From: Sedimentisphaerales bacterium
GTDB lineage: Bacteria; Planctomycetota; Phycisphaerae; Sedimentisphaerales; Anaerobacaceae
NCBI GenBank assembly: GCA_963708075.1
Contig: OY970194.1
Span: 4,000,001-4,064,000 of the forward strand
DNA length: 64,000 bases
Direction: 5' to 3'
The notes beneath the pieces are model-generated. The model saw only the letters and a list, made by a program, of their open reading frames with translations. It was not told where the DNA came from and did no database searches. The first letter of the stretch is position 1. Each line of letters starts with the position of its first letter. Below, piece by piece: positions 29,037-54,398 of this stretch. The translations under genes and the position numbers were made by a program.

Positions 29037-29963
29037 CTATACCTGCCACATGTCATGGAAGTTGAGAAATTGCCAGGGGTGGGACATGACGAAGGCTTCC
29101 AAGGCGTCGACGAACTGTTGCAGATACGGCTTGTATGCGGTGTTGAGCCGTCCGAGGCCGGCGGGCACGTGGATGATGCACGCCAACTCAATCCGGTAGC
29201 TCGAGAAGCCGGTCTTATGGCTGAAGACAACCGCGATCGGGGTGCCCTGCATGGATGAAAGACGATAGGGACTGACAGGAAAATGTACAGGGGCTCCGAG
29301 GAAAGAGGCTTGCAGTGTGTTCGGGTCATTGCCAAAGACACGATCTGCCATCAATCCGAGGACGTGATTGTCCTTGAGTGCGGCGATCATCTGCAGGACT
29401 CCGCCCATCGGCTGTGCCGGATCGATGATCGAGAACGGCACTTCTCTCCCGGCACAATCGAACCATCTCGGATCGATGTCAGCGGCCTCTTGGTGCATGA
29501 CAATGCTCACCGGGGTTTGAAGGTAGCTGAACGCGGACATTGCCACTTGCCAGCATCCGACGTGGCTGTTGAGGATGATCAGACCCCGGCCCTCATCAAT
29601 CAGCTCCCGCAGGCGCGAACCTTCGTGGAAATCCACCCGCAGGGCGTTGGGCCCGAGCAGACCGAAGACAGCCCGATCGATCAGCGATTCGCCCAAAACT
29701 TCAATCCGGCGGTAATCATGCCACAGCCGCACGAGAGGATTTCGTACCTTGGGGAAACGTCTGTCCAGGTAGTACCTGCACCGGCGACGCACGAACGGGC
29801 GGAGCAGTACATACCATGCGACCACCACATACATGCACACGTAAGCCAGGCGGCGCCCCCCTGCGCGGATCAGGAAAGCGAAGAATGCAAACTGCCAGCG
29901 TTTGCCCATGCTTCGTGAATCCCACTGGGCGTTGGAGATGGGGCCCTGAGGTTCAGAACGCAT
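29037..29963 (-). CDS. Lipid A lauroyltransferase-like (LPLAT) acyltransferase
   Basis: 'SHVGCWQ', 'LMADR', 'HPWQFLNFHDMW'. Confidence 0.85.
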   Translation of the reverse strand: MRSEPQGPISNAQWDSRSMGKRWQFAFFAFLIRAGGRRLAYVCMYVVVAWYVLLRPFVRRRCRYYLDRRFPKVRNPLVRLWHDYRRIEVLGESLIDRAVFGLLGPNALRVDFHEGSRLRELIDEGRGLIILNSHVGCWQVAMSAFSYLQTPVSIVMHQEAADIDPRWFDCAGREVPFSIIDPAQPMGGVLQMIAALKDNHVLGLMADRVFGNDPNTLQASFLGAPVHFPVSPYRLSSMQGTPIAVVFSHKTGFSSYRIELACIIHVPAGLGRLNTAYKPYLQQFVDALEAFVMSHPWQFLNFHDMWQV

Positions 29964-31128
29964 GCCGAACCCTCTGCAATGCTCGCGCCATGACATAAGT
30001 CATCAAGCCAAACGCCACTGATAAGACAACCCCGACCGGGACCGATCCGATGCACCAATCCCACAGGCACTCAAGACCCATGTAGCCCAGTTCAAGAAAG
30101 GAGGCGCCGCGGAGACCCTCGATATCCTGAGGGATCAGGAAGCGGCCGAAGCGTATAAAGTGGCCTATCTCAATGCAGATTGCCGGGACCACAGGCGGCA
30201 TACAAAGTTGGCTGGCGGCCACGGCGGCTATGCGGTTCAAGCGCAACAACGCGGCGGCCACAAGGATGGCCAACGTGTGGCAGGCGATCAGCGGCACGGC
30301 GCCCAGAAATACGCCAAGTGCGACGGCAAACGCCAGCTCCTGCGGTGTCGCCCGTTCCATCAGCAGAGTCCGGATGGAACGAAGCGGATGCCAGACGGTG
30401 ATCGACGTTCGTGTGCGCGAGTCTGTGACCTGGCGGTGGGGCCAGGGAACCAGGGACCGCACGGTCAGGCGGGTGTTCAGAACCACGAGCCGCAGGTTGT
30501 CCCACAATTTGTGAAAATGGGAACTGCGATGTTCCGGCTTCGGATAGTGCACCTGTACGCCCACCTCGTGCACTTTCGCACCACCCCACAGGGCACGCAC
30601 GACTACTTCCACCTCAAAGGCGTAACGCCGGGATCGGCACGACAGGTGTTCGATCACTGCCAGGGGATAGGCGCGGTATCCGCTCTGGATGTCGTGTACT
30701 CTCGTGCCCGTCTGCAATCGCACCCAGAAATTGCCAAACGCCCGGCCGAACCGGGAACTCGCGGGCACGGTTCCAGAATCGAAATCCCGTACGCCGAGGA
30801 TCAGTGCCTCCGGATGCTCGCGAATCGCCTCGATGATCCTGGGCAAGTCCTCCGGATAGTGCTGGCCGTCAGCATCCAGAGTGATCATGTGTGTGGCCCC
30901 CTGCCGGCGCAGATGATGCGCGGCCGTCTGGATGGCTGCCGCTTTGCCTCGATTGACCTCGTGACGAAGCACCTCCACGGGCAGGTTCGCCAGAAGAGGG
31001 GCGACCGCCGGATGGCTGCCGTCATCCACGATCAGGACTCGCGGATGTGCTTCAAGGCACCGATGGACGACCTCTCTGAGCCGCTCAGGCTGATTGTAGA
31101 CAGGGATGACAACAGCGATCTGCTCCAC
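29953..31128 (-). CDS. GT2 glycosyltransferase fused to a DUF2062 membrane domain
   Basis: 'VIPVYN', 'VDDGS', 'NRGK', 'DADGQH', 'DIQSGYRAYP'; C-terminal 'ELAFAVALGVFLG'. Confidence 0.88.
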   Translation of the reverse strand: MEQIAVVIPVYNQPERLREVVHRCLEAHPRVLIVDDGSHPAVAPLLANLPVEVLRHEVNRGKAAAIQTAAHHLRRQGATHMITLDADGQHYPEDLPRIIEAIREHPEALILGVRDFDSGTVPASSRFGRAFGNFWVRLQTGTRVHDIQSGYRAYPLAVIEHLSCRSRRYAFEVEVVVRALWGGAKVHEVGVQVHYPKPEHRSSHFHKLWDNLRLVVLNTRLTVRSLVPWPHRQVTDSRTRTSITVWHPLRSIRTLLMERATPQELAFAVALGVFLGAVPLIACHTLAILVAAALLRLNRIAAVAASQLCMPPVVPAICIEIGHFIRFGRFLIPQDIEGLRGASFLELGYMGLECLWDWCIGSVPVGVVLSVAFGLMTYVMARALQRVRHAF

Positions 31129-31141: not shown

Positions 31142-32581
31142 TCACTTTCGTTCTATGATTCGACGGTTAGCACGGGCGAAGGTCAGGAAACTGCCGGCAT
31201 TCGCCAGGAATCGTCGCCAACTGTCGGGGGATTTCCAGAGCATGCTCACGAAGTTCCACAGGGTCTTCGGACGCATATAATAGCGTTTGTAGAACTCGAG
31301 GAATAAACTCTCCAACTGCTCGGCGGTCATCCCGTGGGGCACGAACACCGTATTCATGCAGTCCATCTTCTCCCAGTTCTCCTCGAAGCGGCCTAATGAA
31401 TGGATCTTCTCGTAGAGGGGCGAACCCGGAAAGGGCGTGAACTTGGCGACGTTCAGATCGTCGATGGGCAGCGAGAACACGTACTGCATCGTCCGACGGA
31501 AACTCTGCTCCGTCTCTCCCGGCAGGCCGATCATGAAAAGCCCCTTGACACGGATGCCGGCCTTGTGAATGTCATGGATCGTCCGACTCATCAACTCCAG
31601 ATCCGCGTTCTGGCGGTGTTGCGCCAACAATTCAGGATCGCCCGTTTCAATTCCCAGGCTGATCATCCAGCAGCCCGCTTTCTTCATCAGGACGAGCAGC
31701 TCGCGATCCACGTGCTCGGCCCGCACGGCACAGTTGAAGGTCATCCTCAGGGGCATCTCGATCATCCGCCGACAGAAAGCGACCACGCGATCCCGATTGA
31801 ACGTGAACTGGTCATCGTACAGGTTGATGTGTCGTATCCCAAACTGCTCGTTCAGGGATTGCACGTGCCGGTACAGGTAATCGGCGGAATTGAACCGAAA
31901 GGTCCGCCGAAATACAGAACGATCACAGTAACTGCATTGGTAGGGACAGCCTCGGCTGGAGATGCAACTCGTGTTCGGCGTCCTGGGGTAATTGAAGATC
32001 GGCAACTGGTATCGCTGGGGAAAGCCCTCGATCTTATGATAGGCGGGCAGTGGCAGCGTATCCAGATCCAGCAGGTCTTTCTGAAATCCGGAGAACACGA
32101 CCCGCCCATTGTCCCGATAGACCAGTCCGGCAATGCCCTGGGGACTGCCATCCGCCTCCATAAGGCTTCGCAGTGGAGTCTCCCCTTCTCCAACGACCAC
32201 GGTATCCACCTCGTGGAAGTCCTGGACGATTCTCTCCCGCAAAGCTGAAACGTGCGGTCCCCCAGCGATACAGCAGGTCCCAGGGCTAAGTTCTTTGACC
32301 CGGCGAAAGATGCGGGCCGCATCCAGAAAACCCGCCGTCGTGCACGTTGCCCCCACAAACTGTGGATGGTAGCGGCGCATGTAGTCATCGATCGTCTTAT
32401 CTGAATCCGGGTGGGCAAAGCAGTCGATGATATCCGCACGGAAGCCGTACTGCTCCACGTACGCTGCGATGCCGGCCAGGCCCAATGGCGGCATCAGGTT
32501 GGCCATGCGGGAGATGTCCCGGTCCGCCGCACGTACATCATAGCCCAGCGGGTGAATCAGCAAAATGCGTCGTGTATCCAT
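31142..32581 (-). CDS. B12-binding radical SAM protein #1
   Basis: 'PPLGLA', 'GGPHVS', 'GEGE', SRGCPYQCSYC, 'GIETG', 'FTPFPGS'. Confidence 0.92.
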   Translation of the reverse strand: MDTRRILLIHPLGYDVRAADRDISRMANLMPPLGLAGIAAYVEQYGFRADIIDCFAHPDSDKTIDDYMRRYHPQFVGATCTTAGFLDAARIFRRVKELSPGTCCIAGGPHVSALRERIVQDFHEVDTVVVGEGETPLRSLMEADGSPQGIAGLVYRDNGRVVFSGFQKDLLDLDTLPLPAYHKIEGFPQRYQLPIFNYPRTPNTSCISSRGCPYQCSYCDRSVFRRTFRFNSADYLYRHVQSLNEQFGIRHINLYDDQFTFNRDRVVAFCRRMIEMPLRMTFNCAVRAEHVDRELLVLMKKAGCWMISLGIETGDPELLAQHRQNADLELMSRTIHDIHKAGIRVKGLFMIGLPGETEQSFRRTMQYVFSLPIDDLNVAKFTPFPGSPLYEKIHSLGRFEENWEKMDCMNTVFVPHGMTAEQLESLFLEFYKRYYMRPKTLWNFVSMLWKSPDSWRRFLANAGSFLTFARANRRIIERK

Positions 32582-32611
32582 ACTCAGTCGTCTCCGCCTC
32601 GCTGCAATCCA

Positions 32612-33974
32612 TCAGACTGCATGCGACGGAAAATGAAGCATGCGCTCCCAGAGCAGCCCCTTCCATCCGAAGCCTCGAAGAATCGCCGCCGCGCACTGTC
32701 CCTCATGGGGCGGGAAGATCCGATCGCGCCGGCCCGCCCAGGACTCCGTCACCTGCTGCTCCATCCATGCCTTGTCCACTGCCGGAGAAACATAGTAAAC
32801 GGGCTCCAACAGCGTGTCTGTCTCCCGCAAAAGATGTTCCGCAATAGCGTGCTTGTGAAGAGGCGTCCCCGGATAGATCCGGATTCCCGAGAAGCCAAAG
32901 ACAACGCAACATTCGAGACGAGCGATATTATTGAGCCCGTCCCGAACCGTCGTTGGTGTCTCCTGCGGCCCCCCGAAAATGACAAAATGGGCGGACGCGA
33001 TTTCCATCTGCACGCACATCTGATTCGTCCGCTCGACATCGGCCCATCGGAACGGCTTGCCCATCGCCTCCAACGTGGCGTCCGTCGTGGCATCGGTGCC
33101 AAATTCCACGGCATAGAGAACCGGCTCGCTTGCAGAGCGCCAGGATCTCACGGGTCAGCAGATGAGGCGACATATAGCAAGCCCATTTCACACCAAGCTC
33201 GCGAGCCGCCATTGTCTCGACCAAATCCAGGTACTGTCCCTGAGAGTCGTTGAATATTGAATCGACGAAGAACACGGTATCTACATGAAACTCTCGCTTG
33301 AGCCGTTCCAGATCGGCGATCACCGCCTCAATGTGCCGAGCACGAAACGTCGTGCCCTCCAGTTTCGGATAGGTACAATAGCAGCAATGATAGGGACAGC
33401 CGCGCTTGCTCTGGAGGCCGATGATTCCACTTTTGTCCCAGTAGAACGCTACCAGTGCCGGGTCGAAGCAGGGCGCACGCTGATAGGTTTCGCGTGGTTG
33501 CTGTTGCGTGACGGGCCAGACGGCCGGAAGGGAGCGTCCCTGTGTCACGGCCGCCACGGCATCTACAATCGAGCGTTCCCCCTCTCCCGGCACGGCCATA
33601 TCCGCGCCTACATACTGCCTCACCTCAGGAGGCATCGTCGATACGGCCGCTCCCCCGATAATGACGGGGGCTCGCGTGAAACGCCGTACCGAGGCGACCA
33701 GGTCCTTCGCTTCTTTCAATTCCCAAGCATCCTCGGATCTCACCAAGGAATCGATGCGATCAACATTGCGGATCGACACCGCCACCACCTCCGGGTCGAA
33801 TTCACGGATGGTTTGCCCCAGAAGCTCGGTCTGGCGATCGGCAACCAGCCAGTCGAATTGACGGATCTGATGGCCCGCATCCATCAGGACGCCGGCCACT
33901 GTCGCCATTCCTAAAGGGTAGACCGCGTACGGAGTATCACAGGTATTTGCTGATATGAGAAGGACTCGACTCAT
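32612..33974 (-). CDS. Lipid-biosynthesis-type B12-binding radical SAM protein #2, frameshift near 33119
   Basis: 'YAVYPLGM', 'SIRNVD', KRGCPYHCCYC, 'DSIFN'; continues in 32612-33151 ('VEFGTD', 'FGGPQET', 'GIRIYPGT'). Confidence 0.88.
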
Positions 33975-35242
33975 TTGTCTCCGGATTCCTTGCTTTGAAA
34001 CCGTCTTCTCGTTCGTGGATTGTACCGACGGTAGGTCCCGTCCTCCATTTCGCGCTCGATCACCCGCTGAAACAGCCGTCCCATCCGGAGTTGGTACCCG
34101 GAGTCGGCATAGAAAGTTTTCCAGGCATAGTCATACATCGCCTGCAACTCGTCTACGGACATGCGCTTCGGCCGGAAGACCACCTTGTCGGCGGTGTAAT
34201 CGGCCCAGTTGTTGCTCAAGATCCGCCCTTCTCGCTCCAGTTGCTCGCGAACCGGCGTGTGGGGAAACGGAGTCAGGACCGTGAACTCCGCAACGTCCAA
34301 CCGAATCTCGCACAGAAAATCGACGAGACGCTTGATGGAATCTACGTCATGATCGTCCGTGCCCAGCAGGACCGTGGCTTCCACACCGATCCCGTTGTCC
34401 TGCAGCATGCGAATGCGGTCGCGGATCACATCCGAGGTATCGAATACGGCCTGATACACATACCAGCAACCGGCCTCGGCCGCCAGGCGGACGATCTGCT
34501 CATCGTACAGGATCGGATGCGACACCCATTTCTTCTTCAGCGGCTTGATGGCTTGGAACAGGGACACCAGCCAATCCCGATCTTGCGCGAGAGAATTGTC
34601 AACGATAAAGAGTCGATTATTCTTGATCTGTTCGAACTCCTCGACGACTTTGTCTATCGGACGGGGTCGAAACTGCTTGCCGCCCAGGAAGGCGCTGCAA
34701 CAGGGAAAGCAGTTGAATCGGCAGCCGCGCGAGGCATGCACGAGGTCGACCATTTGGACACCGCGATAGTTGTATAATGCCCGGTCGAGAATATCCCGCC
34801 GGGCCGGCCCGATCCACTCCGTGGGCGGAGGATCGCCCATGAAATCGTACACACGCTTCAGCCGTCCGGCCTTGAGATCGTCGATGACCCGATCAAAACG
34901 CCCTTCGGCTTCTCCCAGGAAGATGGCGTCGGCGTGTTCTGCAACCTCCTCGCTGTGCAGCATCGTGGCAATTCCGCCGAAAATGACGGGCAGGCCTTTC
35001 GATCGAAACGTATCGGCGATCTCGAAGGCCCTTGGAAGCTGGCTCGTCAGCATGACCGAGATCGCCACCAGGTCCACCTCCTCCTCAAAATCGACAGACT
35101 GCACGTTATCGTCTTCGAAGATGATCTCCACGTCGTGCGGCACTGTCGCCGCGAAGACTACCGGCCCGTGGGGCGGCAGATGGAATGGGGTCTGATGCTC
35201 CAGCTTGGGCCACGTCGGATAGATCAGCTTCATCTTTATCAT
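33971..35242 (-). CDS. B12-binding radical SAM protein #3
   Basis: 'LIYP', 'FGGIATML', 'GEAEG', SRGCRFNCFPCC, 'LTPFPHT'. Confidence 0.88.
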   Translation of the reverse strand: MIKMKLIYPTWPKLEHQTPFHLPPHGPVVFAATVPHDVEIIFEDDNVQSVDFEEEVDLVAISVMLTSQLPRAFEIADTFRSKGLPVIFGGIATMLHSEEVAEHADAIFLGEAEGRFDRVIDDLKAGRLKRVYDFMGDPPPTEWIGPARRDILDRALYNYRGVQMVDLVHASRGCRFNCFPCCSAFLGGKQFRPRPIDKVVEEFEQIKNNRLFIVDNSLAQDRDWLVSLFQAIKPLKKKWVSHPILYDEQIVRLAAEAGCWYVYQAVFDTSDVIRDRIRMLQDNGIGVEATVLLGTDDHDVDSIKRLVDFLCEIRLDVAEFTVLTPFPHTPVREQLEREGRILSNNWADYTADKVVFRPKRMSVDELQAMYDYAWKTFYADSGYQLRMGRLFQRVIEREMEDGTYRRYNPRTRRRFQSKESGDK

Positions 35243-35946
35243 TCAGAACCATTCCCATTGCCATGTGTATCGGTCAGGACCTTGCAGGCCAGCCAGACGA
35301 GGTCGGTGGCCTGCTGCGTTCCCCGCGTCAATTCCCGGCCATGCCATTGCCATGAGGCCGCCTCTGAACCTCTGTTCAGCACGAAGAATACTGCCCCGCA
35401 AGGCCCTTCCGGATCGGTGTTCAGCATCTTCGAGTCTACATCGCACCAGCCGGCTACCACTGTCTCACAGAAGCCCCATCGTATCAGATCCAGGGCAGCG
35501 TAAACCCCACCCAGATGTCCGTCTGAATCATCCACGACAAGGCTGGGGCCTGTCAAGCCGAATTGGATGGAGGCTTCGCCAAGCATCGTGCCCGGCAGGG
35601 TGTAGGCAAACAGGTTGGGGCTGGCGAGGGAACCACCTTGGGACGCCACCGTCTCGAAATATGCCAAGTCCGCTTCCTGACAGCCACGCCGTGTGCCTGC
35701 AACCATGCCAATCGTTCGCTTGTGCGTCCACTGATTCAGACCTGCGCTCCTGAGGGCCAGTGCGATCGCCCCAAATCCCGCCTTGGCATAGGAATCGAAC
35801 CGGCCAAATCGGGGGTGCACGACATCCAGGAACAATCTGCTTTTGAGGTTCGGCAGTCGTCCGGACCCGAGCGTGAACATCTCGCCAGGCTGCCCGCTGC
35901 CGACGCCGGAGGGTGTCACCCATCCGATTCCACTGATGTTCACCAT
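35239..35946 (-). CDS. Short non-catalytic ketosynthase (chain-length-factor-like)
   Basis: 'RFGRFD', 'ASPNLFAYTLP', 'FGLTGP'; no active-site Cys; N-terminal domain only. Confidence 0.8.
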   Translation of the reverse strand: MVNISGIGWVTPSGVGSGQPGEMFTLGSGRLPNLKSRLFLDVVHPRFGRFDSYAKAGFGAIALALRSAGLNQWTHKRTIGMVAGTRRGCQEADLAYFETVASQGGSLASPNLFAYTLPGTMLGEASIQFGLTGPSLVVDDSDGHLGGVYAALDLIRWGFCETVVAGWCDVDSKMLNTDPEGPCGAVFFVLNRGSEAASWQWHGRELTRGTQQATDLVWLACKVLTDTHGNGNGSE

Positions 35947-37076
35947 CACGATTCGGCACTCCTTTGCAGGATCAGGGCCGCATTGACACCGCCGAAACCG
36001 GAGTTCGTAGTCAGCAGATAGTCCCCTGAGAACGGTTGCGCCTGCGCCGATACACGTCCTTGCCCACCCGGCTCCGGGGCCCGCAGGCCTACGGTTGGTG
36101 GGATGCACTGATTCTCCAGGCTGCACAACCCCACTATCGTTTCGATTGCCCCGCAAGCGCCCAGAGTGTGCCCTATGGCCCCTTTGATGGAGTGAAACGG
36201 AGGCAATGAGCCAAAAATCGTGGAAAAGGCGGTCACCTCCATGGCATCGTTGTAGACCGATCCGGTGCCGTGGGCATTGATCGCCGCCACGTCAGACGGC
36301 TTCAACCCGGCCCGCTCCAGTGCCTGGCGGACTGCGAGGATCAGTCCTTCGCCCGTTCTCGACGGCGCGGTGATGTGATGGGCATCGGATGCAATGCCCC
36401 AGCCGACGATCCGGCCGAGGCTTCGGCGTTTGGCCTGTCGGCAAGCCCGTTCACTCATCAACAGCAGGCACGCCGCCCCTTCCCCCAACACCAAACCGTC
36501 GCGGTCTACATCGAAGGGACGACACGCCTGTGCAGACAGAGCCTGCAACGCGGAGAATCCGGAGAAGACAAATTCCGAGACGAGATCCAGCCCACAGACC
36601 AGAACCGACTCGACCTCCCCCTGCTGAATCTGCGAAGCTCCCAGCGCCAGGGCGATCGTCGCGGACGCACAAGCCGCATTGATGTTGCAGCGTCGTCCCT
36701 TCACGCCCAACCGATCCGCCACGAGATCCGCCACTTGACAGCCCAGGACGTGGTCCAGCGCCGTCCTTTGTGTACGAACCGCCCACTCCAACTGGTCGAT
36801 GCCTGCTTTCGTTGTTGCAGTGAACAATGTCGCATCGGCCGGAACCGAAGGGGATTCATCGAACAGCATCTCTATCAGCCCGCCCAACCGCGAGCTGTCC
36901 CTCTCGGCATCCAATGCAGCGATGAAACCGGCCACGCTGGATGTATAGCCCTCCGTGGCGAACCGCCGCACAGGGCCAATGCCCGTGTGGCCTGCCAACA
37001 GGCTGCGCCAAAGAGCCTCTCGTCCCATTCCCAGGGACGTCACGACTCGTGTATCCATTACATGGATCGCACTCAC
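35946..37076 (-). CDS. Beta-ketoacyl-ACP synthase
   Basis: NAACASA, NAHGTGS, KGAIGHT (Cys-His-His). Confidence 0.92.
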   Translation of the reverse strand: MSAIHVMDTRVVTSLGMGREALWRSLLAGHTGIGPVRRFATEGYTSSVAGFIAALDAERDSSRLGGLIEMLFDESPSVPADATLFTATTKAGIDQLEWAVRTQRTALDHVLGCQVADLVADRLGVKGRRCNINAACASATIALALGASQIQQGEVESVLVCGLDLVSEFVFSGFSALQALSAQACRPFDVDRDGLVLGEGAACLLLMSERACRQAKRRSLGRIVGWGIASDAHHITAPSRTGEGLILAVRQALERAGLKPSDVAAINAHGTGSVYNDAMEVTAFSTIFGSLPPFHSIKGAIGHTLGACGAIETIVGLCSLENQCIPPTVGLRAPEPGGQGRVSAQAQPFSGDYLLTTNSGFGGVNAALILQRSAES

Positions 37077-37534
37077 GCCAGTTCCCCTCGCTTCCACTTC
37101 TGCAGGAACTCGGCAAAGAACGGCGGCGGCGTAAGAAGAACGTTCAGGTTGCAGTCCAGCATCATCTGTACCGTGCAGCCTGTACATACAAGTTGGCCGT
37201 GAGCGTTGCGAATCTCGTATTCGAAATTGATGCGTGCGGCGTCCGACCAGTGCAGGACCGCCGTGATGTCCATATCGTCCTCGAACCGCAAGGGACCCAG
37301 GTAGTCGATCTGCATCTGTCGCACCGGAACCGGGATTCGCTCCCGGATGAAATCGCTGTAGCCGATCCCATAGCGATGGCCCAGGGCCACCCGGGCATCT
37401 TCGAAGTAGCTAGGGTAACAGCCATGCCAGACAATCCCCATCGAGTCCACTTCCTCGAATCGGACGCGTCGCTGAACGGTCAGACGAAGCGCCGCCGGCG
37501 CACCGTTGATGGGCGGGAAGTACGGTTTACGCAT
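37073..37534 (-). CDS. 4HBT-type thioesterase
   Basis: 'VRFEEVDSMGIVWHGCYPSYFEDAR'. Confidence 0.9.
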   Translation of the reverse strand: MRKPYFPPINGAPAALRLTVQRRVRFEEVDSMGIVWHGCYPSYFEDARVALGHRYGIGYSDFIRERIPVPVRQMQIDYLGPLRFEDDMDITAVLHWSDAARINFEYEIRNAHGQLVCTGCTVQMMLDCNLNVLLTPPPFFAEFLQKWKRGELA

Positions 37535-37919
37535 GGCCACCTTCCTCAACATCAAACTCCAGTGTGAACACAGCGGCCTTCTCACTGCCTGCCAGCAGCG
37601 TGAAACTGCATCGCAGGCGATCATTCCGCGGCTCTTCCTGCCAGCAGACCGTCACGGGCTGGTCCGGCAGGATGGTTCTGAGAAACTTGCTCCGCTCCAC
37701 CCGTCGAAGGCGCCAGTTGCAGGCGCTGCGAACACACAGAGCACACTGTCCCGTCAACAATTGTACGAATGCCGGCAGGACCGGGTGCCCCGGAAAGTGC
37801 CCCTGGAAGCCGGTGAAGTTTTTGTCAAAGTGAAACACCAACTCATGGCTCCGCCCCCCATCCAGGGTTCGGACCTGCCTGTCTGCACATGCGAGGATCT
37901 CTTCTCGTAACGTTCGCAT
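37527..37919 (-). CDS. FabZ/ApeI-like dehydratase
   Basis: 'FQGHFPGHPVLPAFVQ', 'KFLRTILP'. Confidence 0.85.
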   Translation of the reverse strand: MRTLREEILACADRQVRTLDGGRSHELVFHFDKNFTGFQGHFPGHPVLPAFVQLLTGQCALCVRSACNWRLRRVERSKFLRTILPDQPVTVCWQEEPRNDRLRCSFTLLAGSEKAAVFTLEFDVEEGGHA

Positions 37920-37926
37920 CGCCACC

Positions 37927-40326
37927 TCAGTTTGCCGGATCATGATTCTGCAGGGCGGGAATCACGAACACGGCACAGACCATAGAAGGAAGAAGGCCCA
38001 GGACAACGGTAATACCCAGTGAGAACATCGCTGGATGATGCGCCAGCGCCAGGGCCCCAAAACTGCTGATCGTGGTCAGGGCCGACGTGACTACCGACCG
38101 CTCGGCCACGCCATCACACTCTTTACAGCGATACAGCATGAATGTCCCATAGTCGATGCTGAGCCCCAGGACGAGCACTCCGGCTGCTATATTGAACAGA
38201 TTCACCCGGATGCCCAGCAATCCCATCAGGGCCAGCATCACGACAACGCCGGTGATCGACGGGAGCAGGCACAAAACCACATGCGTTAGACGCCGCAACG
38301 TCACCGCCAATACAAGCACGACCAGGCTCAGGGCCCCCAGCAAGAAACGGGTGAAATCGCGATGCAGCAACTGTCGAAGCGAGACAGCAAACTGCCTCTG
38401 TGAGACGGCCTGAGCGCCCGGCGGCAGTTCCAAGCCAGACAGGCCCGCAGCCTGATCCGCCTGGTCGCTATCGGAAACCAGGTTGATCAGGCCCAAGCCC
38501 GCCGGCTCCAACAACCACAGCGGCTCCAACAGCGGCCCAGCCGCCTTGCGGAGATCGGCAGGCCCGAAGGGCTCTCTTTCCTGTTCAATCCACTGAAGAA
38601 AGGGTATGAACGCTCCCTGCGAGAAACCCAGCGTTCGCCCGTGAGTATCGAGAGCTTCCTTCAACCGGTCCAAACGCCCTTGCTCGCGCCAGAAACGCTC
38701 CCATCGGACCAGATTGGCCGACTGTGTCGCCCGGCTGGGCAATAGCGGAGCCACGCTCACGAACTCACCCGGCCGCCGATTCGCGGACAACTGCGCATAG
38801 ACCTGCTCATTCGTCCGCAGCGCTGCCTCTTCATCTTCGTCGCGAACGACCACCAAGGCCCGACCCCGGGGATCACCCCATACATCCCGGACGCAGAACT
38901 CGTCCGCCAGAATGTCCTTGGGCATCAACCCAAAGGATCGAAGATCCCCCTCGAATGCCACGCGAAAACACCATGGCACACAGATCAGGATCGCCGCCAG
39001 CCAGGCGCCGATCACCCAACGAGAACGACCGGCCAACACCTGGGGCAACAACAACCAGTGGTCCCGCCGGCTCTGTCCAACCCAATGCGGCAGACATCCC
39101 ACGGCCAGCGCCAGGGCCACTGTCAGCCCTGCAATCGCCAAAACCGCCAATTGACGCTGGATCGGAACGGCGGACCATAAAAGGACGGCAAAGACAACGA
39201 CTGTCGAAGCGAAGGATATAACCATCGGCACCGCCAACCCCGCCATCTCCTCCTGGGGCTTGGCTCCCGGCCTGCGGAGAGCATAGAACACATGGAGCCC
39301 ATAGTCATCGGAGATCCCCAGAAGAACGGCGCCAAACCCCACCACAATAGCCGACAGCGGCGTGAACAGTCCCGCGACCACAAGCACACCTGCCAGGACC
39401 CCCAACGACGGGACGGCAAACACGAATACCGCCCGCCAGTGACGCAGCATGACCAGGAAGATCACGGCCAGACTAAGCGACGAGACCGCAAAAACCACGA
39501 TCAGGTCCCGCTTGATTGCTTTGGCATTGGCAACCGTATAGCGATGGGCACAGACTACATGGGCGAGGATCGTCTCGGGAACCGTCCGCGAGAGCACCTC
39601 GTCGAGATACTGAAGCACCTGCTCGCCACCCTTGGAATCGCCCATGGAGATCGGCGTCTCCGCGACGAGCAGGAGGTGCTTGCCGGTCGGATCGATGAGA
39701 AATCCTTGTTCGACCTGCATGTCGGGGAGCAGGGCCACGGCCCCCAACTTGCGCAGCACCTGGTTGCGAAATCCAAGGGGATCTTTGGCGAGCCATTTTC
39801 TCAACCACAGTCCCTCAGGACCGGCGAGAGCCTGAAGATCGGTCTGGAGCGTCTGAGCCACCTGCGGGGACGCGACTTGGGGCGCCAGGGCTGCCGCGTC
39901 CTCCTCTGTGAACAACTGCGGCATGTGCGCATAAAGCCAATCGATCAGATTGGCCCCCGCCTCCATGGGCAAACCACCGATCACGTTGGAAATCAGCGGT
40001 GGACCCAGCCGCTCTTCCAGAAGCGCCGCCGTCTCCATCAACAGAGAGACCTGCTCAGGCTCCCGGGCTTCCAGATCGATCAGAATGCTCCGCGTGAATG
40101 GCGCCGCTTCCAGCAGCCGATAGCTGGCCACGAACGTTGGATCGCTGTCCGGAAGCATCAGCGTGATGTCCTCCCGCATGGGCGCCCGCGCCACAATCAG
40201 GCCCCCGATCAGGGCCGACACCGCCACCACGGCGGCGTACGCCCATCGATGGCGGGATCCCACTCGATAGATCCCCCGGGCTGTCCGCGCCAACACGTTT
40301 GCTTCCACCTGTCCCAAGCGATCCAC
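37927..40326 (-). CDS. MMPL/RND-family exporter
   Basis: Two TM clusters; 'LGISDDYGLH', 'GLSIDYGTF', 'SALTTISSFGAL'. Confidence 0.9.
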   Translation of the reverse strand: MDRLGQVEANVLARTARGIYRVGSRHRWAYAAVVAVSALIGGLIVARAPMREDITLMLPDSDPTFVASYRLLEAAPFTRSILIDLEAREPEQVSLLMETAALLEERLGPPLISNVIGGLPMEAGANLIDWLYAHMPQLFTEEDAAALAPQVASPQVAQTLQTDLQALAGPEGLWLRKWLAKDPLGFRNQVLRKLGAVALLPDMQVEQGFLIDPTGKHLLLVAETPISMGDSKGGEQVLQYLDEVLSRTVPETILAHVVCAHRYTVANAKAIKRDLIVVFAVSSLSLAVIFLVMLRHWRAVFVFAVPSLGVLAGVLVVAGLFTPLSAIVVGFGAVLLGISDDYGLHVFYALRRPGAKPQEEMAGLAVPMVISFASTVVVFAVLLWSAVPIQRQLAVLAIAGLTVALALAVGCLPHWVGQSRRDHWLLLPQVLAGRSRWVIGAWLAAILICVPWCFRVAFEGDLRSFGLMPKDILADEFCVRDVWGDPRGRALVVVRDEDEEAALRTNEQVYAQLSANRRPGEFVSVAPLLPSRATQSANLVRWERFWREQGRLDRLKEALDTHGRTLGFSQGAFIPFLQWIEQEREPFGPADLRKAAGPLLEPLWLLEPAGLGLINLVSDSDQADQAAGLSGLELPPGAQAVSQRQFAVSLRQLLHRDFTRFLLGALSLVVLVLAVTLRRLTHVVLCLLPSITGVVVMLALMGLLGIRVNLFNIAAGVLVLGLSIDYGTFMLYRCKECDGVAERSVVTSALTTISSFGALALAHHPAMFSLGITVVLGLLPSMVCAVFVIPALQNHDPAN

Positions 40327-40382
40327 CCGTTATCTCAAAGTAATGCACGTCATGGCTACGGTCCTGCGGTCGCGAGGCCTTT

Positions 40383-40823
40383 TCACTTGGCATCCTGTGG
40401 CGCATCGGGCTGCACCCAGATCTTGAGCGTGCCGCCGGCCACGACGGCCTCTCCACACAGCACCTGTCCGTCCACAAAGTAGAAATCCCCGAAAGAGCAG
40501 GACGACTGAATCTTGATCAGGAGCTGCTGTCCTGCCGCCGGAAGGTCCTCGATATGGAAGTTCTGAGCTCCAACAAGATACCCTTTATTCGTGAGCTTAC
40601 CGGCGAGCCGGTCCCGATATCCTTGTGAGGCCGCATAGGTTTGCGCTACCAACTCCAGCAGGGCCGCCGCCTCGATCTTCCCATCCGGACCTATGCCGAC
40701 ATCTCCAACATTCAGAGTCGTCTGTGCCTCGGCGTGGTCATCTTCGACACACAGGAGCCTGTGCACCAGCCGCATAGGCGAACGGTGAAGCATGTACGTC
40801 TCCGTGTCCGCGGGCAAGCTCAT
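40383..40823 (-). CDS. ApeP-like hotdog dehydratase
   Basis: 'MLHRSPMRLVHRL', 'LELVAQTYAA', 'GYLVG'. Confidence 0.78.
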   Translation of the reverse strand: MSLPADTETYMLHRSPMRLVHRLLCVEDDHAEAQTTLNVGDVGIGPDGKIEAAALLELVAQTYAASQGYRDRLAGKLTNKGYLVGAQNFHIEDLPAAGQQLLIKIQSSCSFGDFYFVDGQVLCGEAVVAGGTLKIWVQPDAPQDAK

Positions 40824-42418
40824 ACCATCGATCCTCCATCGAAGTACACGCTGAGATCATCGAATAATTGACTGGAGAAGAGCAGCTTGCGGAATCTCAT
40901 GAGCTCGTCATGGAAAATCGCTTGATTGTCGTACACCTTGAAGTCCTTTGCGAGCAACTCGTAAACGCGCCGGCACCCGCTCCCAAGGCCGGGGGCATTG
41001 CGGAACGAAAGCGCCTGCATATCTGCGAGCACTTCGACGGTCAGAATATGCTTGGCGTTGCTCACCGCCTTGAACGCCTTTCTTGCCGCTACGGTTCCCA
41101 TGCTCACGACATCCTGGTTCGATGCGTTGCAGGAAATCGACAGCGTTCCCACGGGATTCGCAAGATGCCGATTTTCCGCCGTGGTTGAGGTGGCGACGTA
41201 CTGAGCCCCCATGAATCCCATGGTCAGCCCCGCCTGGCCTGCGATCAACAGCTCAGGCAATCCTTCATTGAGGTGCTTGTCCAGAAGCTTGTTGATCCGC
41301 CGTTCCGAGAGAGTGCTCATCACAGCCACCGCCATGCACAGAGAGTCCATCGCAAACGCTATGCTCTGTCCGTGGAAGTTGCCTCCGTGAATGATCTTCT
41401 CTTTTTCGGGGATGACCACGGGGTTGTCATTGACGGAATTGGCTTCCACGCAAACCGTCCTCGTCATCTGTTCGATCGTCTCCTGGACCGGAGCGAGGAT
41501 CTGGGGCGTGCAGCGAATCGAGTACACATCCTGGACATTGATGTCCGTCTCGAAGGAGACTCCTTCCGCTTTGCCCTGGCGAATACGATCGTGTAATTCG
41601 CTTCGCCGCGTTATGTTTCGTGATCCCTGGTAAAGGTGGCGTATCGTCTCTGCGATGCGCTGCTGCCCCGGATGTGGCTTGACCCGATGCAGATCCTCAT
41701 CGAAGGCATCATCGATACCGCCAAAGATCTCGAGCGCAAAGGCGGCCGTGACGGAACTCAGCGACAGCAGTTTTCTGGCTCCAAACAGTGCAAAGGCCGC
41801 CAGGGCAGTCATGGCGCTGGTGCCATTGATCAGAGCAAGACCTTCCTTGAAACTCAGCCGGAATGGCGTCAGACCCTCTGCTTTCAGGGCCTCTCCAGCA
41901 GTCGTCAACTGCCCTTTGTGAAAGACCGCTCCCTCGCCGATAATCGCCAGGGCCAGGTGGGCAAGATGCACAAGGTCCCCGGAGGCGCCGACGCTTCCAC
42001 ACTCCGGAATATATGGGGCAATACCCGCATTAATCATGTCCCGCATCAGTTCCAGCAGCGTCACTCGCACGCCGCTGTAGCCTTTGACCAGCGTGTTGAG
42101 CCGCACGGCCATAACAGCCTGCGCGATGTAGTACTTCAGAGGATCCCCCAGACCCGCCGCATGGCTGCGGATCAGATTCACCTGCAAATCGCCCAGATCA
42201 TCATCGGCGATGATCTTGTTGCACATGGGACCAAAAGAAGTGTTCACTCCGTAGATGATCCGTCGAGCAGCGACCTCCTGCTCGAGAAATGCCCGGCTTC
42301 GCCGGCATCGGTCCAGGGCCGCGGCATCCAAGGCTACCGCCTTGTCGCCAACGCCGATCGCCACAACATCGTCGATCGTCAGATCATTGCCATTGAGGAC
42401 TACTTCAGGCCGTTTCAT
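40820..42418 (-). CDS. MIO-dependent aromatic amino acid ammonia-lyase (HAL/PAL/TAL family)
   Basis: 'IYGVNTSFG', GASGD (MIO), 'KEGLALINGT', 'QDVYSIRC', 'GGNFHG'. Confidence 0.93.
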   Translation of the reverse strand: MKRPEVVLNGNDLTIDDVVAIGVGDKAVALDAAALDRCRRSRAFLEQEVAARRIIYGVNTSFGPMCNKIIADDDLGDLQVNLIRSHAAGLGDPLKYYIAQAVMAVRLNTLVKGYSGVRVTLLELMRDMINAGIAPYIPECGSVGASGDLVHLAHLALAIIGEGAVFHKGQLTTAGEALKAEGLTPFRLSFKEGLALINGTSAMTALAAFALFGARKLLSLSSVTAAFALEIFGGIDDAFDEDLHRVKPHPGQQRIAETIRHLYQGSRNITRRSELHDRIRQGKAEGVSFETDINVQDVYSIRCTPQILAPVQETIEQMTRTVCVEANSVNDNPVVIPEKEKIIHGGNFHGQSIAFAMDSLCMAVAVMSTLSERRINKLLDKHLNEGLPELLIAGQAGLTMGFMGAQYVATSTTAENRHLANPVGTLSISCNASNQDVVSMGTVAARKAFKAVSNAKHILTVEVLADMQALSFRNAPGLGSGCRRVYELLAKDFKVYDNQAIFHDELMRFRKLLFSSQLFDDLSVYFDGGSMV

Positions 42419-43763
42419 GACAAACCCGTCCTCTCTCTGGTTCGGTGGTCAAATACGAGCACAGGCTTGCGGCGTCCCTCGATCCTGGTGCGTTTCTGTA
42501 TCTCATCGGCTGGGACAATGGCCACGTCTAATGTCACACGAACCCGTCCCCGAATCCGCTCGGAAATCTCCCGCTCGGTCAGACGGGCCCCATCCTCAAG
42601 TCCAACGGCCACCCGGACGCGATCCGACAACTCATGATCCTCGTACACATCCAGGCAATAATTGCGAATCCCTTCCAGACTCTGCAGGGCGGCAAAGATC
42701 GCCGGAGGGTACAGTGTCGTGCCACGCACTTTGAGCATCTGCGCCTTGCGACCCAGGACCGGCCCGAGTCGATAGGTCTTGCGGCCGCAAGGGCACGCAT
42801 CCGTCAACAGGGCCGCAATATCTCCCGTACTCAATCGCAGCAGGGGCATCCCTGTCACCTGCAGGGGCGTTGCCACGACTTCGCCGGCCTGGCCCGGCGG
42901 GACCGGCTCGCCGGCCTCGTTCAGGATTTCAACGGCAATCAGATCCGGCAAAACATGGCCACCTCCGCGCCCCTGGGCACATTCCGTGAACGATGTGGCC
43001 ATCTCGGTGCTGGCATACGTCCCCAGCACCTGTGCCGACCACAGGTCATGCAAGCGTCGGCCCAGGGCAGACAGTGACAGGTCTTCATCCCGGACCGGCT
43101 CGCCAATACAGATCAGCCTGCCAATCGCCAATCCCGCGGGATTGCCCCCTCGTTCGCGCAGCAGACGCCCCGCCTCCAGGAGCATTGAGGGAACCCCGAT
43201 GATGGCCGTAGGCTTGTGCAACAGGATCGCTTCGGCTACCAGGGAAACACTGCCGGCGCCGCGCGGATCGCCGTGGCTCCGATGCGTCGCAGCCCCTCGA
43301 AATAGGCCAGTCCCGCCATGAAGCAGCGATCCAGGGCGCATGCGATCAGGACCCGGTCCCGGGCCGTGAGACCGGCGGCCAGGAAACACATTTGCTCGTT
43401 GTATGCAAGACGCCGCAGGTCCTTTTCGGTCTGCAGCAGAGCAACGGGTGCTCCTGTCGTGCCGGAGGTCTGGCAAACGTCCACCACCTGACTCTCGGGC
43501 ACACAGAGCAGCTCATCTCCATGTTCCGCCAAGTCCGCCTTGGTGGTCAAGGGTAGACGACGCAAATCCGCTACACACTGAACATCCTGCGGTTTCACGC
43601 CGGCGCGATCGAATCGCTGCCGGTAGAAACGGGAGTGTTCATAGCAGTAATGAACGTGATCGGCCAGAAGCCTATTCGTACACGCGGAGAGCCACTCGAC
43701 GGACTCGAACGACACGTGTCCAGCATCTTTGGGCTCCGGCCGGTCCGTCGATCCCCAATCCAT
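42415..43763 (-). CDS. PaaK-like acyl-CoA ligase, frameshift near 43260
   Basis: 'LPLTTKADL', 'TSGTTG' in 43236-43790; 'YASTE', 'PLLRLSTGD', 'GR..MLKVRG' in 42415-43476. Confidence 0.88.
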
Positions 43764-43770
43764 GAACTGA

Positions 43771-44583
43771 TCACGACCGATTCCCAGCAAGGCAGGCTCC
43801 CATCAACTGTTTCACGCGTTTTCGCAACTCGATATGTCCTGTCTCGCCTTGAAAGGCCTTCGGCTCGATCGGCTCGAGGCACTCCAGCCGGACGTCGGCA
43901 GGCGACATCCAGCGACGTCCTCGGGGCAGCATCTGGTCGGTCCCTGAGATGCAGATCGGCGCGATGGGAACATTGAACTGCAGCGCCAGCTTGAATGCCC
44001 CGGAATAGAACCGGCCGAGCTGCCCGTCACGACTGCGATGCCCCTGAGGAAACAGCAGGATGGAACGCCCCTCGTCAAAGAGGTACTGCATCCTCTGCAC
44101 GATTTGCTCCCAAGGCAGCTGCTCCACATCCACATATTCCGCCCATCGCATGAATGGCGCGTACCAGGCTAACTTGAAGGGCCAGGATCGCAGGCAAATC
44201 ACCACGTCAAATACCGGCATGGCAGACAAAAAGAAAATGTCGAAAAAGGACAGATGGTTCGCCACGTAGATGTAGGGTCCATTGTGCCGCGAGCAATCGG
44301 TCCCCGTCACCTTGAGACGAATGAAGGGCGATACGATCCATAGCCAGACACGCCCATACATCCAGATGAAATGACGCATGATCTTCGACACCGGCCAACG
44401 CGTCGCCGGTAACCACAGGACCAACAATAACGGAGAAATCGCCAGCGCGATCAGCGTCTCCAGAACCATCAGGACCAGCACCCAGAGGTTCATCAGAACG
44501 ATCGCCAAGAATACGACCTTGGATCGCTGTTGTCCCACTGGAATTGCGTTTTCTGCGCACTTCCCCATGTTCGTACACCCCAC
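43771..44583 (-). CDS. PlsC-type lysophospholipid acyltransferase
   Basis: NHLSFFD, FPQGHRS, 'FYSGAF'. Confidence 0.88.
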   Translation of the reverse strand: MGCTNMGKCAENAIPVGQQRSKVVFLAIVLMNLWVLVLMVLETLIALAISPLLLVLWLPATRWPVSKIMRHFIWMYGRVWLWIVSPFIRLKVTGTDCSRHNGPYIYVANHLSFFDIFFLSAMPVFDVVICLRSWPFKLAWYAPFMRWAEYVDVEQLPWEQIVQRMQYLFDEGRSILLFPQGHRSRDGQLGRFYSGAFKLALQFNVPIAPICISGTDQMLPRGRRWMSPADVRLECLEPIEPKAFQGETGHIELRKRVKQLMGACLAGNRS

Positions 44584-44616
44584 AGGGTTCTTCTATCCCG
44601 CGCTCGTGGCAGGATC

Positions 44617-44886
44617 CTACCCTTTTGCGGAGCCCTCCATCTCCCGCTTCTTCTCGATCACGAGGCGATGCAGATCGCCCAAGGTTCGCACCTCACGGAC
44701 ACGAGGCTCTTCTCGAAGAGTTACCCCGAAGGCCTGCTGCAATACGACGACGACATCAACAAAATCCAAGCTGTCGAAGCCCAGACCTTCCACCAGATGA
44801 GCGTCCGGCGTCATCACGCCGGGGTCCAGCTCGAATTCATTGATAAGACTCCGATTGACTAACTCGATTACCTCGCTATCTGTCAC
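44617..44886 (-). CDS. Acyl carrier protein 1
   Basis: 'LGFDSLDFVD' phosphopantetheine site; GTG start. Confidence 0.9.
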   Translation of the reverse strand: MTDSEVIELVNRSLINEFELDPGVMTPDAHLVEGLGFDSLDFVDVVVVLQQAFGVTLREEPRVREVRTLGDLHRLVIEKKREMEGSAKG

Positions 44887-47571: not shown

Positions 47572-47699
47572 GGATACCAACCTTGCGACACGAGCATATC
47601 GCCACCATACACGTCTCTGGGGAAAGGGCAATCAAACTCGCACTTCCCATAGAGCCACCAGCCTTTTGTCTGTATTCCGTTTCCGGCCTACCGCCATAG

Positions 47700-47727
47700 C
47701 TTATAGCCTGCTGCCTGATCCCTGCAA
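47700..47727 (-). promoter_or_regulatory. Putative internal promoter of the long minus-strand operon
   Basis: TTGCAG-16-TATAAG. Confidence 0.45.
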
Positions 47728-47774
47728 GGAATATTTTCGGTCTAGCGTGAGGTGCCCATCATTCTTTCTATTCC

Positions 47775-48806: not shown

Positions 48807-48905
48807 TATTCATCCCCAATCGATCGATCACGAGCGACAGTACGGCCGAGGGAAGAGCGCGTGCGGAAATGCAGCAATTGGTGGATTCCGCGATCAGGAG
48901 TGTGC

Positions 48906-50129: not shown

Positions 50130-50170
50130 CTTCACCTCATGACTGTGTTCGCGATTGTGATGGATCGTCG

Positions 50171-50902: not shown

Positions 50903-50986
50903 GAAGCCTCCCGAATGGGCCATTTCATCTTCTATTCCACAGGGTCGATCGTATATGCCACAGGCAGACCCGCCATCAGACTCTCT

Positions 50987-54320: not shown

Positions 54321-54398
54321 GCCGTCGGTGCCGGTTCTTCCGCTCATCGCAGTTTCGCGGGCGAGAATTCTGTACGTAACAATTATTCCAGGCGGAGA

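Follow-up and report, generated by a model that had tools for sequence, protein, structure and literature searches.

We analyzed a 64,000-nucleotide stretch of DNA from a Sedimentisphaerales bacterium (contig OY970194.1, positions 4,000,001 to 4,064,000; hereafter the window), which is part of a single 7.5-Mb contig of a genome that is 92.8% complete. The window carries three neighboring genes for proteins of the cobalamin (B12)-dependent radical S-adenosylmethionine (SAM) type, named here RS_C, RS_B, and RS_A in the order of their transcription. The main result concerns RS_C: throughout its family, elements that contact SAM in related enzymes have been lost together. We read RS_C as an enzyme that lost SAM chemistry long ago but is still under strong selection; judged by its sequence, it is likely a SAM-independent cobalamin/iron-sulfur enzyme that acts on lipids. 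Our overall reading, to which we give slightly less than an even chance, is that the region is an aryl polyene (APE)-type lipid cluster of an anaerobe whose trio would comprise three separate tailoring enzymes: RS_B as a TsrM-like C-methylase, RS_A as an optional radical enzyme, and RS_C as a SAM-independent cobalamin/iron-sulfur reductase. Motifs and their losses, folds, and synteny are what the data show; the bound cofactors, the substrates, and all reactions are inferred from them.

Loss of SAM-binding elements across the RS_C family

An initial annotation of this DNA gave the cysteine motifs of the trio as CPYQCSYC (RS_A), CPYHCCYC (RS_B), and CRFNCFPCC (RS_C), and all three are present as stated, on the minus strand. 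It called the RS_C motif atypical for its proline and for an extra cysteine. We located 282 genome loci that encode an RS_C relative and fetched the best 80 as related loci (L numbers below). Pro180 was present in 80 of 80 loci and in 119 of 120 database homologues, and this part of the description stands. The extra cysteine, Cys182, is present but dispensable: of 92 locus copies, 12 have Ser and 4 have Ala in its place, with C181 invariant. Since C182 is replaced in 16 of the 92 copies, it is not an essential ligand, which weakens both its reading as a fourth iron ligand and the reading of the loop as an AprD4-like CX3CX3C motif.

The larger change, missed by the initial annotation, is that both the ribose motif and the alpha4a helix have disappeared. 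We aligned RS_C with 258 of 270 fetched proteins (12 outside 380 to 600 amino acids were dropped) and 6 locus proteins, giving 265 rows, of which 125 have the loop CxxxCxPCC (the PCC proteins). In radical SAM enzymes, the aromatic residue before the third cysteine contacts the adenine. This residue is Phe or Tyr in 128 of the 140 rows outside the PCC set and Pro in the RS_C family. Compared with its canonical relatives, RS_C has YQAVFD in place of the GxE[ST] motif at the end of strand beta4, lacks the alpha4a segment, and has PH[ST] in place of PGT in beta6. In each of the 125 PCC proteins, the stretch from G258 to G286 covers 29 residues, GxE[ST] is absent, and about 14 residues, including the alpha4a helix and its lysine, are deleted. 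Among the other 140 rows, 139 span at least 38 residues and 121 have GxE[ST]; the only row shorter than this belongs to the RS_C family and has PCA. A lysine lies 8 to 13 residues past GxE[ST] in 118 of the 121 canonical rows. The ribose motif and the Lys or Arg of alpha4a are described as SAM contacts in OxsB, TsrM, and TokK (PMC9204698). In the AlphaFold model of RS_C (pLDDT 86.7), beta4 runs directly into alpha4 with no helix between them, and the RS_B model keeps a short helix there.

Residues S62, G89-G90, G110-E111, C174, C178, and C181 are invariant in 58 of 58 RS_C sequences, at positions that correspond to the cobalamin and cluster motifs described in PMC9204698. D215-N216 and the beta5 glycine are also kept. 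All three proteins of the trio match the Pfam B12-binding and Radical_SAM models, RS_C below both cut-offs (30.8 versus 32.1 and 24.3 versus 29.5, respectively); its DUF4070 score is 27.8 against a cut-off of 22. TIGRFAM placement and structure prediction, both among the checks suggested with the initial annotation, were carried out. The former put RS_B in TIGR04072, left the nearest models of RS_A far below their cut-offs, and gave no methylase model near its cut-off for RS_C (best 54 of 251 bits). In the latter, the RS_C model aligned with OxsB, TsrM, and MgmA over both domains (Z 22 to 25), and its best structural match was AprD4 (Z 30.3, root mean square deviation [rmsd] 2.7, 374 aligned residues). 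A search of the ESM Atlas returned generic B12/radical SAM clusters only.

Across 66 distant loci, the median identity of RS_C is 68%. The ketosynthase (KS) KS1 stands at 45% and the chain-length factor (CLF) CLF1 at 35%; RS_B, over its N-terminal part, reaches 39%, RS_A 60%, and the ammonia-lyase of the cluster 72% (n = 9). RS_C stays about 60 to 70% identical across phyla, and 47 of 48 Desulfobacterota matches from an evenly drawn sample fell between 59 and 71%. This high identity points to an active enzyme rather than to decay. In a quick IQ-TREE analysis, RS_C grouped with 12 hand-picked proteins without GxE[ST] (support 99). When the motif columns were masked and the 121 canonical rows were included in a FastTree analysis, 11 of 18 motif-degenerate proteins, and no canonical one, joined the RS_C family (support 0.905).

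On these grounds we lean toward the view that RS_C makes no 5'-deoxyadenosyl (5'-dA) radical. That it is specifically a reductase is a doubtful further step. In such a reaction, cob(I)alamin, re-reduced by a three-Cys [4Fe-4S] cluster, would act on the chain that KS1/CLF1 produces and reduce one of its C=C or C-O bonds. It is possible, if speculative, that an unrecognized clade of proteins with the radical SAM fold has given up SAM and uses cobalamin and a [4Fe-4S] cluster for redox chemistry on the acyl chains or lipids of anaerobes, with RS_C as its most widespread member; RS_C would then share its origin in the DUF4070 group with the anammox ladderane candidates.

The family shows further peculiarities. 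In the cobalamin loop, PPLG is changed to PPHG by His25 (35168-35170, minus strand), which is invariant in 58 of 58 core members; basal relatives (L091 and P0122) keep PPLG, and His25 is a candidate cobalt- or substrate-contacting residue. A sister family without SAM motifs (P0147; L138-L155) occurs in acyl-lipid operons, usually before a SPASM radical SAM gene, and directly follows an LpxL-like gene in 15 of the 18 listed loci; the remaining 3 are truncated on the upstream side. Two of these loci, L147 and L150, contain in addition RS_A-like, TIGR04072-like, FabD, FabG, and FabZ genes together with a canonical DUF4070-type protein.

Distribution of the trio and the characters of RS_B and RS_A

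The three proteins are divergent, as the initial annotation had it: pairwise identities are 20 to 23% and they fall in three separate clades, which rules out a recent triplication. The KS/CLF pair that it placed directly upstream is also there, with Cys-His-His in KS1 and no catalytic Cys in CLF1, and the stop codon of each gene overlaps the start codon of the next, from KS1 via CLF1 and RS_C to RS_B. A CLF or KS gene lies directly upstream of RS_C in 67 of the 69 related loci with enough flank. Of 57 loci, 55 have a thioesterase (TE) within 3 kb of RS_C; a family 2 glycosyltransferase (GT2) lies no more than 5 kb away in 43 of 58, and RS_B is next to RS_C in 68 of 73. The full trio occurs in 30 of 67 loci; RS_A is elsewhere in the locus in 6 and was not seen in 31. 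The order TE-KS1-CLF1-RS_C-RS_B-(RS_A)-GT2-LpxL-KS4-CLF4 recurs in Planctomycetota, Desulfobacterota, Nitrospirota, and other groups.

In evenly drawn samples, RS_C was present in 44 of 301 Desulfobacterota genomes. Among genomes of the same phylum, 5 of 401 encode it (E below 1e-100) and 22 of those 401 have a TIGR04072 protein over cut-off; within the genus, RS_C is present in 9 of 23 genomes. The nearest named relatives of RS_C come from planctomycete metagenome-assembled genomes (82 to 88% identity). At 12 hand-picked distant loci, the neighbors of RS_C are genes for ligase, acyltransferase (PlsY-like or LpxL-like), DegV/Fak, GT2, KS, and lyase, and 7 of the 12 have no RS_B within the roughly 15 kb fetched. 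The basal copies L091 and L092 (46% identity) have no recognizable lipid genes nearby. From the locus counts, the genome samples, and the distant loci, the core consists of RS_C with KS1, CLF1, and TE; RS_B usually accompanies it but is independent of it, and RS_A is an optional member.

These distributions do not support a fixed sequence of three steps on a chain loaded on an acyl carrier protein (ACP), as the initial annotation had proposed, since RS_A is absent from 31 of 67 loci, RS_B does not adjoin RS_C in 5 of 73, and the RS_B family is found in more genomes of the phylum than RS_C. The broader suggestion of a role on an acyl-lipid product is likely correct: every lipid-cluster context seen holds acyltransferase, ACP, KS, or ligase genes.

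Some recurrent neighbors deserve mention. Four Desulfobacterota loci (L198, L199, L200, and L209) are of a second RS_C type, with RS_A, a PlsY-like gene (3 of 4), and GT2 (2 of 4), beside prismane (hybrid-cluster) genes; in L198 and L199, two further radical SAM genes lie beside an ACP and a KS pair. L200, L202, L204, and L206 share a DAK2-DegV (fatty-acid-kinase-like) gene fusion in the neighborhood of RS_C. Downstream in Nitrospirota-type clusters without RS_A, a 500-amino-acid (aa) protein without Pfam or NCBIfam match recurs (L056:10541-12064 and 10 other loci), as does a flavin adenine dinucleotide oxidoreductase (L073:19297-20484).

RS_B is split in the window, where a single surplus base near 33119 changes the frame at 33118-33120; its halves match TIGR04072 profile positions 1-281 (338 bits) and 282-442 (216 bits). 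The extra base is absent from the contigs of sequencing runs X1, X2, and X4, of which X1 and X2 belong to one study, and X3 has no coverage of the site. In X1, it is missing in 37 of 41 contigs that are at least 99% alike. Depths are low (2.5 to 5.6). RS_B is a single open reading frame (ORF) in 68 of 69 relatives scored. The AMP ligase of the cluster, also split in the window, is a single ORF in 7 of 7 relatives inspected, with read support from X4 only (an extra base there). Both frameshifts are likely assembly errors. A true pseudogene or a programmed frameshift of RS_B is unlikely in view of the intact relatives and of the base missing in three runs. Because of the split, we used the intact L047 orthologue (75 to 82% identical) for RS_B comparisons.

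Searched against NCBIfam, this orthologue scored 577 bits with TIGR04072 (cut-off 360), followed by BzaD (163) and TsrM (TIGR04428; 121 of 500). Both BzaD and TsrM are described as methylases of sp2 carbons (PMC12931638, PMC8992657). The RS_B model superimposes on TsrM with Z 36.9 and an rmsd of 2.6 over 443 residues (next entry, Z 28.7), and TsrM is also its best solved relative by sequence (24% identity, with Tyr in place of Glu236). S67, R69, and N70 are invariant in 58 of 58 RS_B sequences and align to T67-x-R69 of TsrM, in which Arg69 is reported to block the lower cobalt face and to favor polar methyl transfer (PMC8992657, PMC9204698). RS_B is probably a methylase, with methylation of an sp2 carbon as the likely best guess. 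By analogy, it would pass a methyl group from methylcobalamin to an electron-rich sp2 carbon, in the simplest case on the phenol ring, and so replace ApeB; that the aryl ring is the target is a fair possibility, held at somewhat under even. Against this stand several facts. Glu273 of TsrM, a fourth-iron ligand that blocks the cluster, is Val or Ile in RS_B, which may then be a radical enzyme; the segment reads DSVFN in 57, DSIFN in 4, and DAIFN in 1 of 68 sequences, with no pattern match in 6. Contrary to a simple replacement of ApeB, homologues of RS_B also lie beside SAM methyltransferases (L112) and in small operons of ACP, KS, and flavoprotein genes where no aryl-starter genes can be seen (L122); given the latter, the chain may also be the RS_B target. 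A second, more distant TIGR04072-like gene of the same genome (G000:C1:1864275-1865564, minus strand) scores 226 bits, under cut-off.

RS_A matches both the B12-binding and Radical_SAM Pfam models over cut-off. G107-G108, G131-E132, C212/C216/Y218/C219, G310-x-E312, and P383-F-P-G386 are invariant in 35 of 35 sequences. Its nearest models, HpnJ (190 of 578 bits), BchE (175 of 481), and Sden_1168 (172 of 575), reach about a third of their cut-offs. RS_A usually precedes GT2 and, where a locus has no RS_B, is still found together with GT2 and a PlsY-like gene; this association suggests that it likely takes a late step on the anchor or chain. RS_A is likely an optional, conventional radical enzyme.

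Alternative readings of the trio

Several observations weigh against a SAM-independent RS_C. Missing consensus motifs are no proof that SAM is not bound: the ribose motif of TokK is reported to be Gln, and TsrM to bind SAM away from the cluster (PMC9204698). The invariant Q264, E288, T290, and E319 of RS_C could substitute as a rebuilt SAM site, and 7 of the 18 rows without GxE[ST] fall outside the RS_C clade. The IQ-TREE tree behind the clades is the quick version. AprD4, the best fold match, is reported to bind no cobalamin (PMC12931638), and the B12-binding score of RS_C is below cut-off. The cluster already holds a flavoprotein that could reduce double bonds. Finally, the 80 loci were found via RS_C, which inflates its conservation and linkage counts.

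A rebuilt SAM site would suit a reading in which all three proteins are cobalamin-dependent methyltransferases, with RS_C methylating the chain or lipid as HpnP, its distant DUF4070 relative, does hopanoids. The shared B12, radical SAM, and DUF4070 architecture (PMC10697835), the predominance of methylases among the characterized members of the class (PMC13459092, PMC12931638), and the retained cluster cysteines, D215-N216, and beta5 glycine all speak for it. We consider it unlikely, as three SAM-contacting elements have been lost jointly in every family member examined and no methylase model comes near its cut-off. A different use of motif loss would make RS_C a noncatalytic partner, as CLF is to KS, that carries cobalamin or electrons for RS_B, RS_A, or KS1/CLF1; its codon overlap with CLF1 and RS_B and the frequent adjacency of RS_B fit such a role. 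RS_C is, however, far more conserved than RS_B, over half of the hand-picked distant loci show no RS_B in the stretch fetched, and the RS_B family is common without RS_C, all of which makes the proposal rather improbable. More improbable still is an RS_C without cobalamin, its Rossmann domain serving as a scaffold (as in AprD4 or ArsL) in another radical or noncanonical SAM reaction, e.g., dehydration of a sugar or hydroxy-acyl group. AprD4 is its best match by sequence, profile, and fold, and GT2 is a frequent neighbor; yet RS_C and AprD4 are only about 20% identical, GVESG and the alpha4a insert are intact in AprD4, and the cobalamin-tail motifs of RS_C are invariant.

The initial annotation also envisaged non-methylating steps, including ring formation. 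A non-methylating step is plausible for RS_C; ring formation found no support. The corresponding alternative has the trio act in sequence on one ACP-bound chain, with radical C-C ring formation of the ladderane or Grs kind. Translational coupling to KS/CLF, the place of KS/CLF-linked anammox-type radical SAM proteins (L124 and L125) in the broad DUF4070 group of RS_C, the non-methylases HpnJ and BchE as the nearest models of RS_A, and the known B12-type ring synthases GrsA/B (PMC13459092) are in its favor. Nevertheless, the trio is complete in fewer than half of the loci, RS_A reaches a third of the HpnJ and BchE cut-offs, and RS_C is without the SAM-binding elements required for cyclization by a 5'-dA radical. 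RS_B is closest to the methylase TsrM. The anammox-type proteins lie outside the RS_C clade and have canonical SAM motifs, and two anammox-type genomes searched with the RS_C query gave no orthologue (best match 33%, with a canonical motif). Desulfotalea psychrophila, which has a syntenic cluster, is reported to have given no ladderanes (PMC2649909). We therefore rate a ring-forming sequence as very improbable and retain, as the preferred reading, separate tasks for the three proteins with RS_C independent of SAM.

The gene cluster, its proposed product, and known systems

The features around the trio are listed in Table 1. The minus-strand run from 50923 to 29037 reads, in order of transcription, FabG, KS3, esterase, flavoprotein, KS2, ACP, PlsC, AMP ligase, MIO (4-methylideneimidazole-5-one) lyase, putative dehydratase, MMPL, ApeI-like, TE, KS1, CLF1, RS_C, RS_B, RS_A, GT2-DUF2062, and LpxL. 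The MMPL match of the transporter is marginal in Pfam (20.1 versus a cut-off of 20.5), and RND models match it at 1e-25. The ApeI-like dehydratase has a Pfam E value of 9e-4, below cut-off. The 146-aa protein, which we take from its motif to be a second hotdog dehydratase, has no Pfam match, nor has the 176-aa protein at the ApeN/DUF3261 position.

Table 1. Features of the cluster in the window
Feature	Position	Strand	Remarks
RS_C	33971..35242	(-)	423 aa; cobalamin-type Rossmann domain, radical-SAM barrel, and DUF4070; SAM-binding motifs degenerate
RS_C Cys loop	34697..34723	(-)	C174-R-F-N-C178-F-P180-C181-C182; C174, C178, P180, and C181 invariant
RS_C strand beta4 (G258-S270)	34433..34471	(-)	GxE[ST] ribose motif replaced, then deletion of ~14 residues
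RS_B	32612..33974	(-)	TIGR04072, TsrM-like (S67-x-R69-N70); ~453 aa when intact; start 33974
RS_A	31142..32581	(-)	479 aa; canonical B12-type radical SAM: CPYQCSYC, YDD, GIETG, PGS; accessory
CLF1	35239..35949	(-)	Short ketosynthase-like chain-length factor; catalytic Cys absent
KS1	35946..37058	(-)	Ketosynthase; Cys-His-His present
Thioesterase, 4HBT-type	37073..37624	(-)	ApeK-like judged by domain and position
ApeI-like dehydratase (weak Pfam match), MMPL/RND exporter, 146-aa protein	37527..40823	(-)	
MIO aromatic amino-acid lyase	40820..42418	(-)	Likely tyrosine ammonia-lyase
FlxY-like aryl-acid CoA/AMP ligase	42415..43802	(-)	Split by frameshift near 43260-43290
PlsC-type acyltransferase, ACP, KS2, phytoene-dehydrogenase-like flavoprotein, esterase, KS3, FabG	43771..50923	(-)	
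GT2-DUF2062 glycosyltransferase and LpxL-type acyltransferase	29037..31128	(-)	Pair is ApeJ-like
Second cluster arm: KS4, CLF4, PagL-family protein, lipoprotein, LolA, 176-aa protein	51515..56375	(+)	

Several features of the surrounding DNA are reported for completeness. The esterase (47775-48806, minus strand) is of the polyhydroxybutyrate-depolymerase type and lies between KS3 and the flavoprotein; of the 80 related loci, only L009 shares it, and there the cluster's two arms have another arrangement. At about 51125-51500, a minus-strand ORF looks antisense to a small plus-strand ACP preceding KS4; an ACP before KS4 is also found in the relatives L016, L071, and L077. Two overlapping plus-strand ORFs in different frames (58942-61182 and 61058-61810) resemble one split enzyme and are possibly a third assembly frameshift.

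We based the proposed pathway on gene content, by analogy with the flexirubin and aryl polyene lipid (APEL) pathways. The best solved relative of the lyase is a tyrosine aminomutase (337 bits), and both have the SH, AQY, and NQDVVSM segments. These segments separate tyrosine from histidine enzymes. Tyrosine would be deaminated to 4-coumarate by the MIO lyase and the 4-coumarate activated by the FlxY-like ligase, much as FlxA and FlxY are reported to produce 4-coumaroyl-CoA for flexirubin (PMC3992019). The chain would then be extended on ACP by KS/CLF, FabG, and the dehydratases. PlsC, GT2, and the LpxL-like enzyme would join chains to a sugar-glycerophosphate anchor, and MMPL and LolA would export the lipid. 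The structure of APEL accounts for PlsC, GT/acyltransferase, MMPL, and LolA genes (10.1101/2020.12.19.423268). By this analogy, the cluster product is probably an APE-like acyl-glycolipid, and likely an APEL-like glycolipid with a modified chain.

The cluster type itself is known. 'Ladderane-like' type II fatty acid synthase clusters were described in 2009 in Kuenenia, D. psychrophila, Geobacter, and Pelobacter (PMC2649909), and the window belongs to an aryl-polyene/flexirubin-like type II polyketide synthase lipid cluster of anaerobes. What is new is the family-wide linked loss of SAM elements in RS_C, Arg69 in RS_B, the dispensable extra cysteine, and the frameshift. Our literature search, which did not cover subscription journals, found no paper that joins aryl polyene, radical SAM, and ammonia lyase (SAM-motif loss was not directly searched), and a search with the same coverage on TIGR04072/DUF4070 found none naming TIGR04072. 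In the accessible part of a 2026 review, ladderanes and the product of Jaw5 stand alone among acyl lipids in being put forward as targets of radical SAM modification (PMC13459092). Anaerobes commonly carry this type of cluster, and the trio now splits into three jobs that can be tested separately. If RS_C binds cobalamin and ignores SAM, a protein annotated everywhere as radical SAM would be a different kind of B12 enzyme. If it belongs to a SAM-free redox clade, its reaction would reveal the product of this lipid cluster.

The published APE core set consists of KS, ACP, CLF, a dehydratase (DH), a ketoreductase (KR), and an ApeM-type transporter (10.1101/2020.12.19.423268), of which KS, ACP, CLF, KR, and the transporter are all present in the window. 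The ape clusters also share TE, PlsC-type, GT plus acyltransferase, RND exporter, and LolA genes with it (10.1101/2020.12.19.423268; 10.1101/2020.04.22.055939). The window differs in its four KS and two CLF, the ammonia-lyase starter route, the flavoprotein, and the three B12-type proteins. In APE pathways, the ring is reported to be methylated by the SAM methyltransferase ApeB (same sources). Among the 35 window ORFs scanned, we found no ApeB-type SAM methyltransferase and recognized no DarA/DarB (dialkylresorcinol) genes, the latter without a genome-wide search. Compared with models built on the flexirubin cluster of Chitinophaga pinensis (PMC3992019), the lyase scores 479 of 700 bits with FlxA, the ligase 159 plus 273 of 520 (two pieces) with FlxY, and FabG 331 of 340 with FlxB, all below cut-off.

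At the level of single proteins, RS_B has its best fold and sequence match in TsrM (PDB 6WTE/6WTF), with Arg69 kept and Glu273 and Glu236 replaced. RS_C shares the three-domain B12/radical SAM/DUF4070 architecture published for HpnP and HpnP-like proteins (PMC10697835, 10.1101/2025.07.29.667474), the likeness being to that published architecture. Most of the broad DUF4070 group keeps the Cys-loop aromatic residue, GxE[ST], and the alpha4a helix that RS_C has lost. AprD4, a radical SAM diol dehydratase (PDB 6FD2), is about 20% identical to RS_C and has CX3CX3C, GVESG, and the alpha4a insert.

For ladderanes, a list of genes has been published whose expression in E. coli is reported to have given no new fatty acids (PMC4790861), and the accessible parts of three sources mention no characterized ladderane radical SAM enzyme (PMC10139942, PMC13459092, 10.64898/2026.05.19.726425). 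Multiple FabF/CLF pairs, an aryl-acid CoA ligase, a phytoene-dehydrogenase-like gene, MMPL, and a glycosyltransferase are common to the window and to the clusters of Kuenenia stuttgartiensis (kuste3335-3352) and D. psychrophila, the latter and Geobacter being compared by publication only. An anammox-type genome (G132) has stretches in the gene orders published for kuste3352-3335 (L112-113), Cluster I (L124), and kuste2803-2805 (L125), its kuste and Cluster I positions being assigned via published gene order rather than named records. Its TIGR04072 gene at the kuste3342 position (440 bits, 34% identity to RS_B) is the RS_B counterpart; it neighbors a SPASM-type radical SAM gene, and two SAM methyltransferases are present, unlike in the window. 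No ammonia-lyase was seen in the part fetched of the kuste3335-3352-type stretch. Just upstream of the kuste3352-type cluster, G132 (L112:187-2695, L127) has a canonical DUF4070-group radical SAM gene (33% identity to RS_C) and an ATP-grasp gene; these follow LpxL-like, LolA, and SPASM genes, and the cluster may reach beyond its published extent. With our queries, this genome yielded no orthologue of RS_C or RS_A (best 33%). The radical SAM proteins beside both KS/CLF pairs (L124 and L125) belong to the same broad DUF4070 group, are 25 to 28% identical to RS_C, and have canonical motifs. With this identity, separate supported clades, and canonical motifs, we rejected RS_C as an orthologue of the ladderane candidates; by identity and tree position it is their cousin. 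The trio also offers non-anammox relatives of anammox proteins that are hard to express, for example in Geothermobacter hydrogeniphilus HR-1 (L035).

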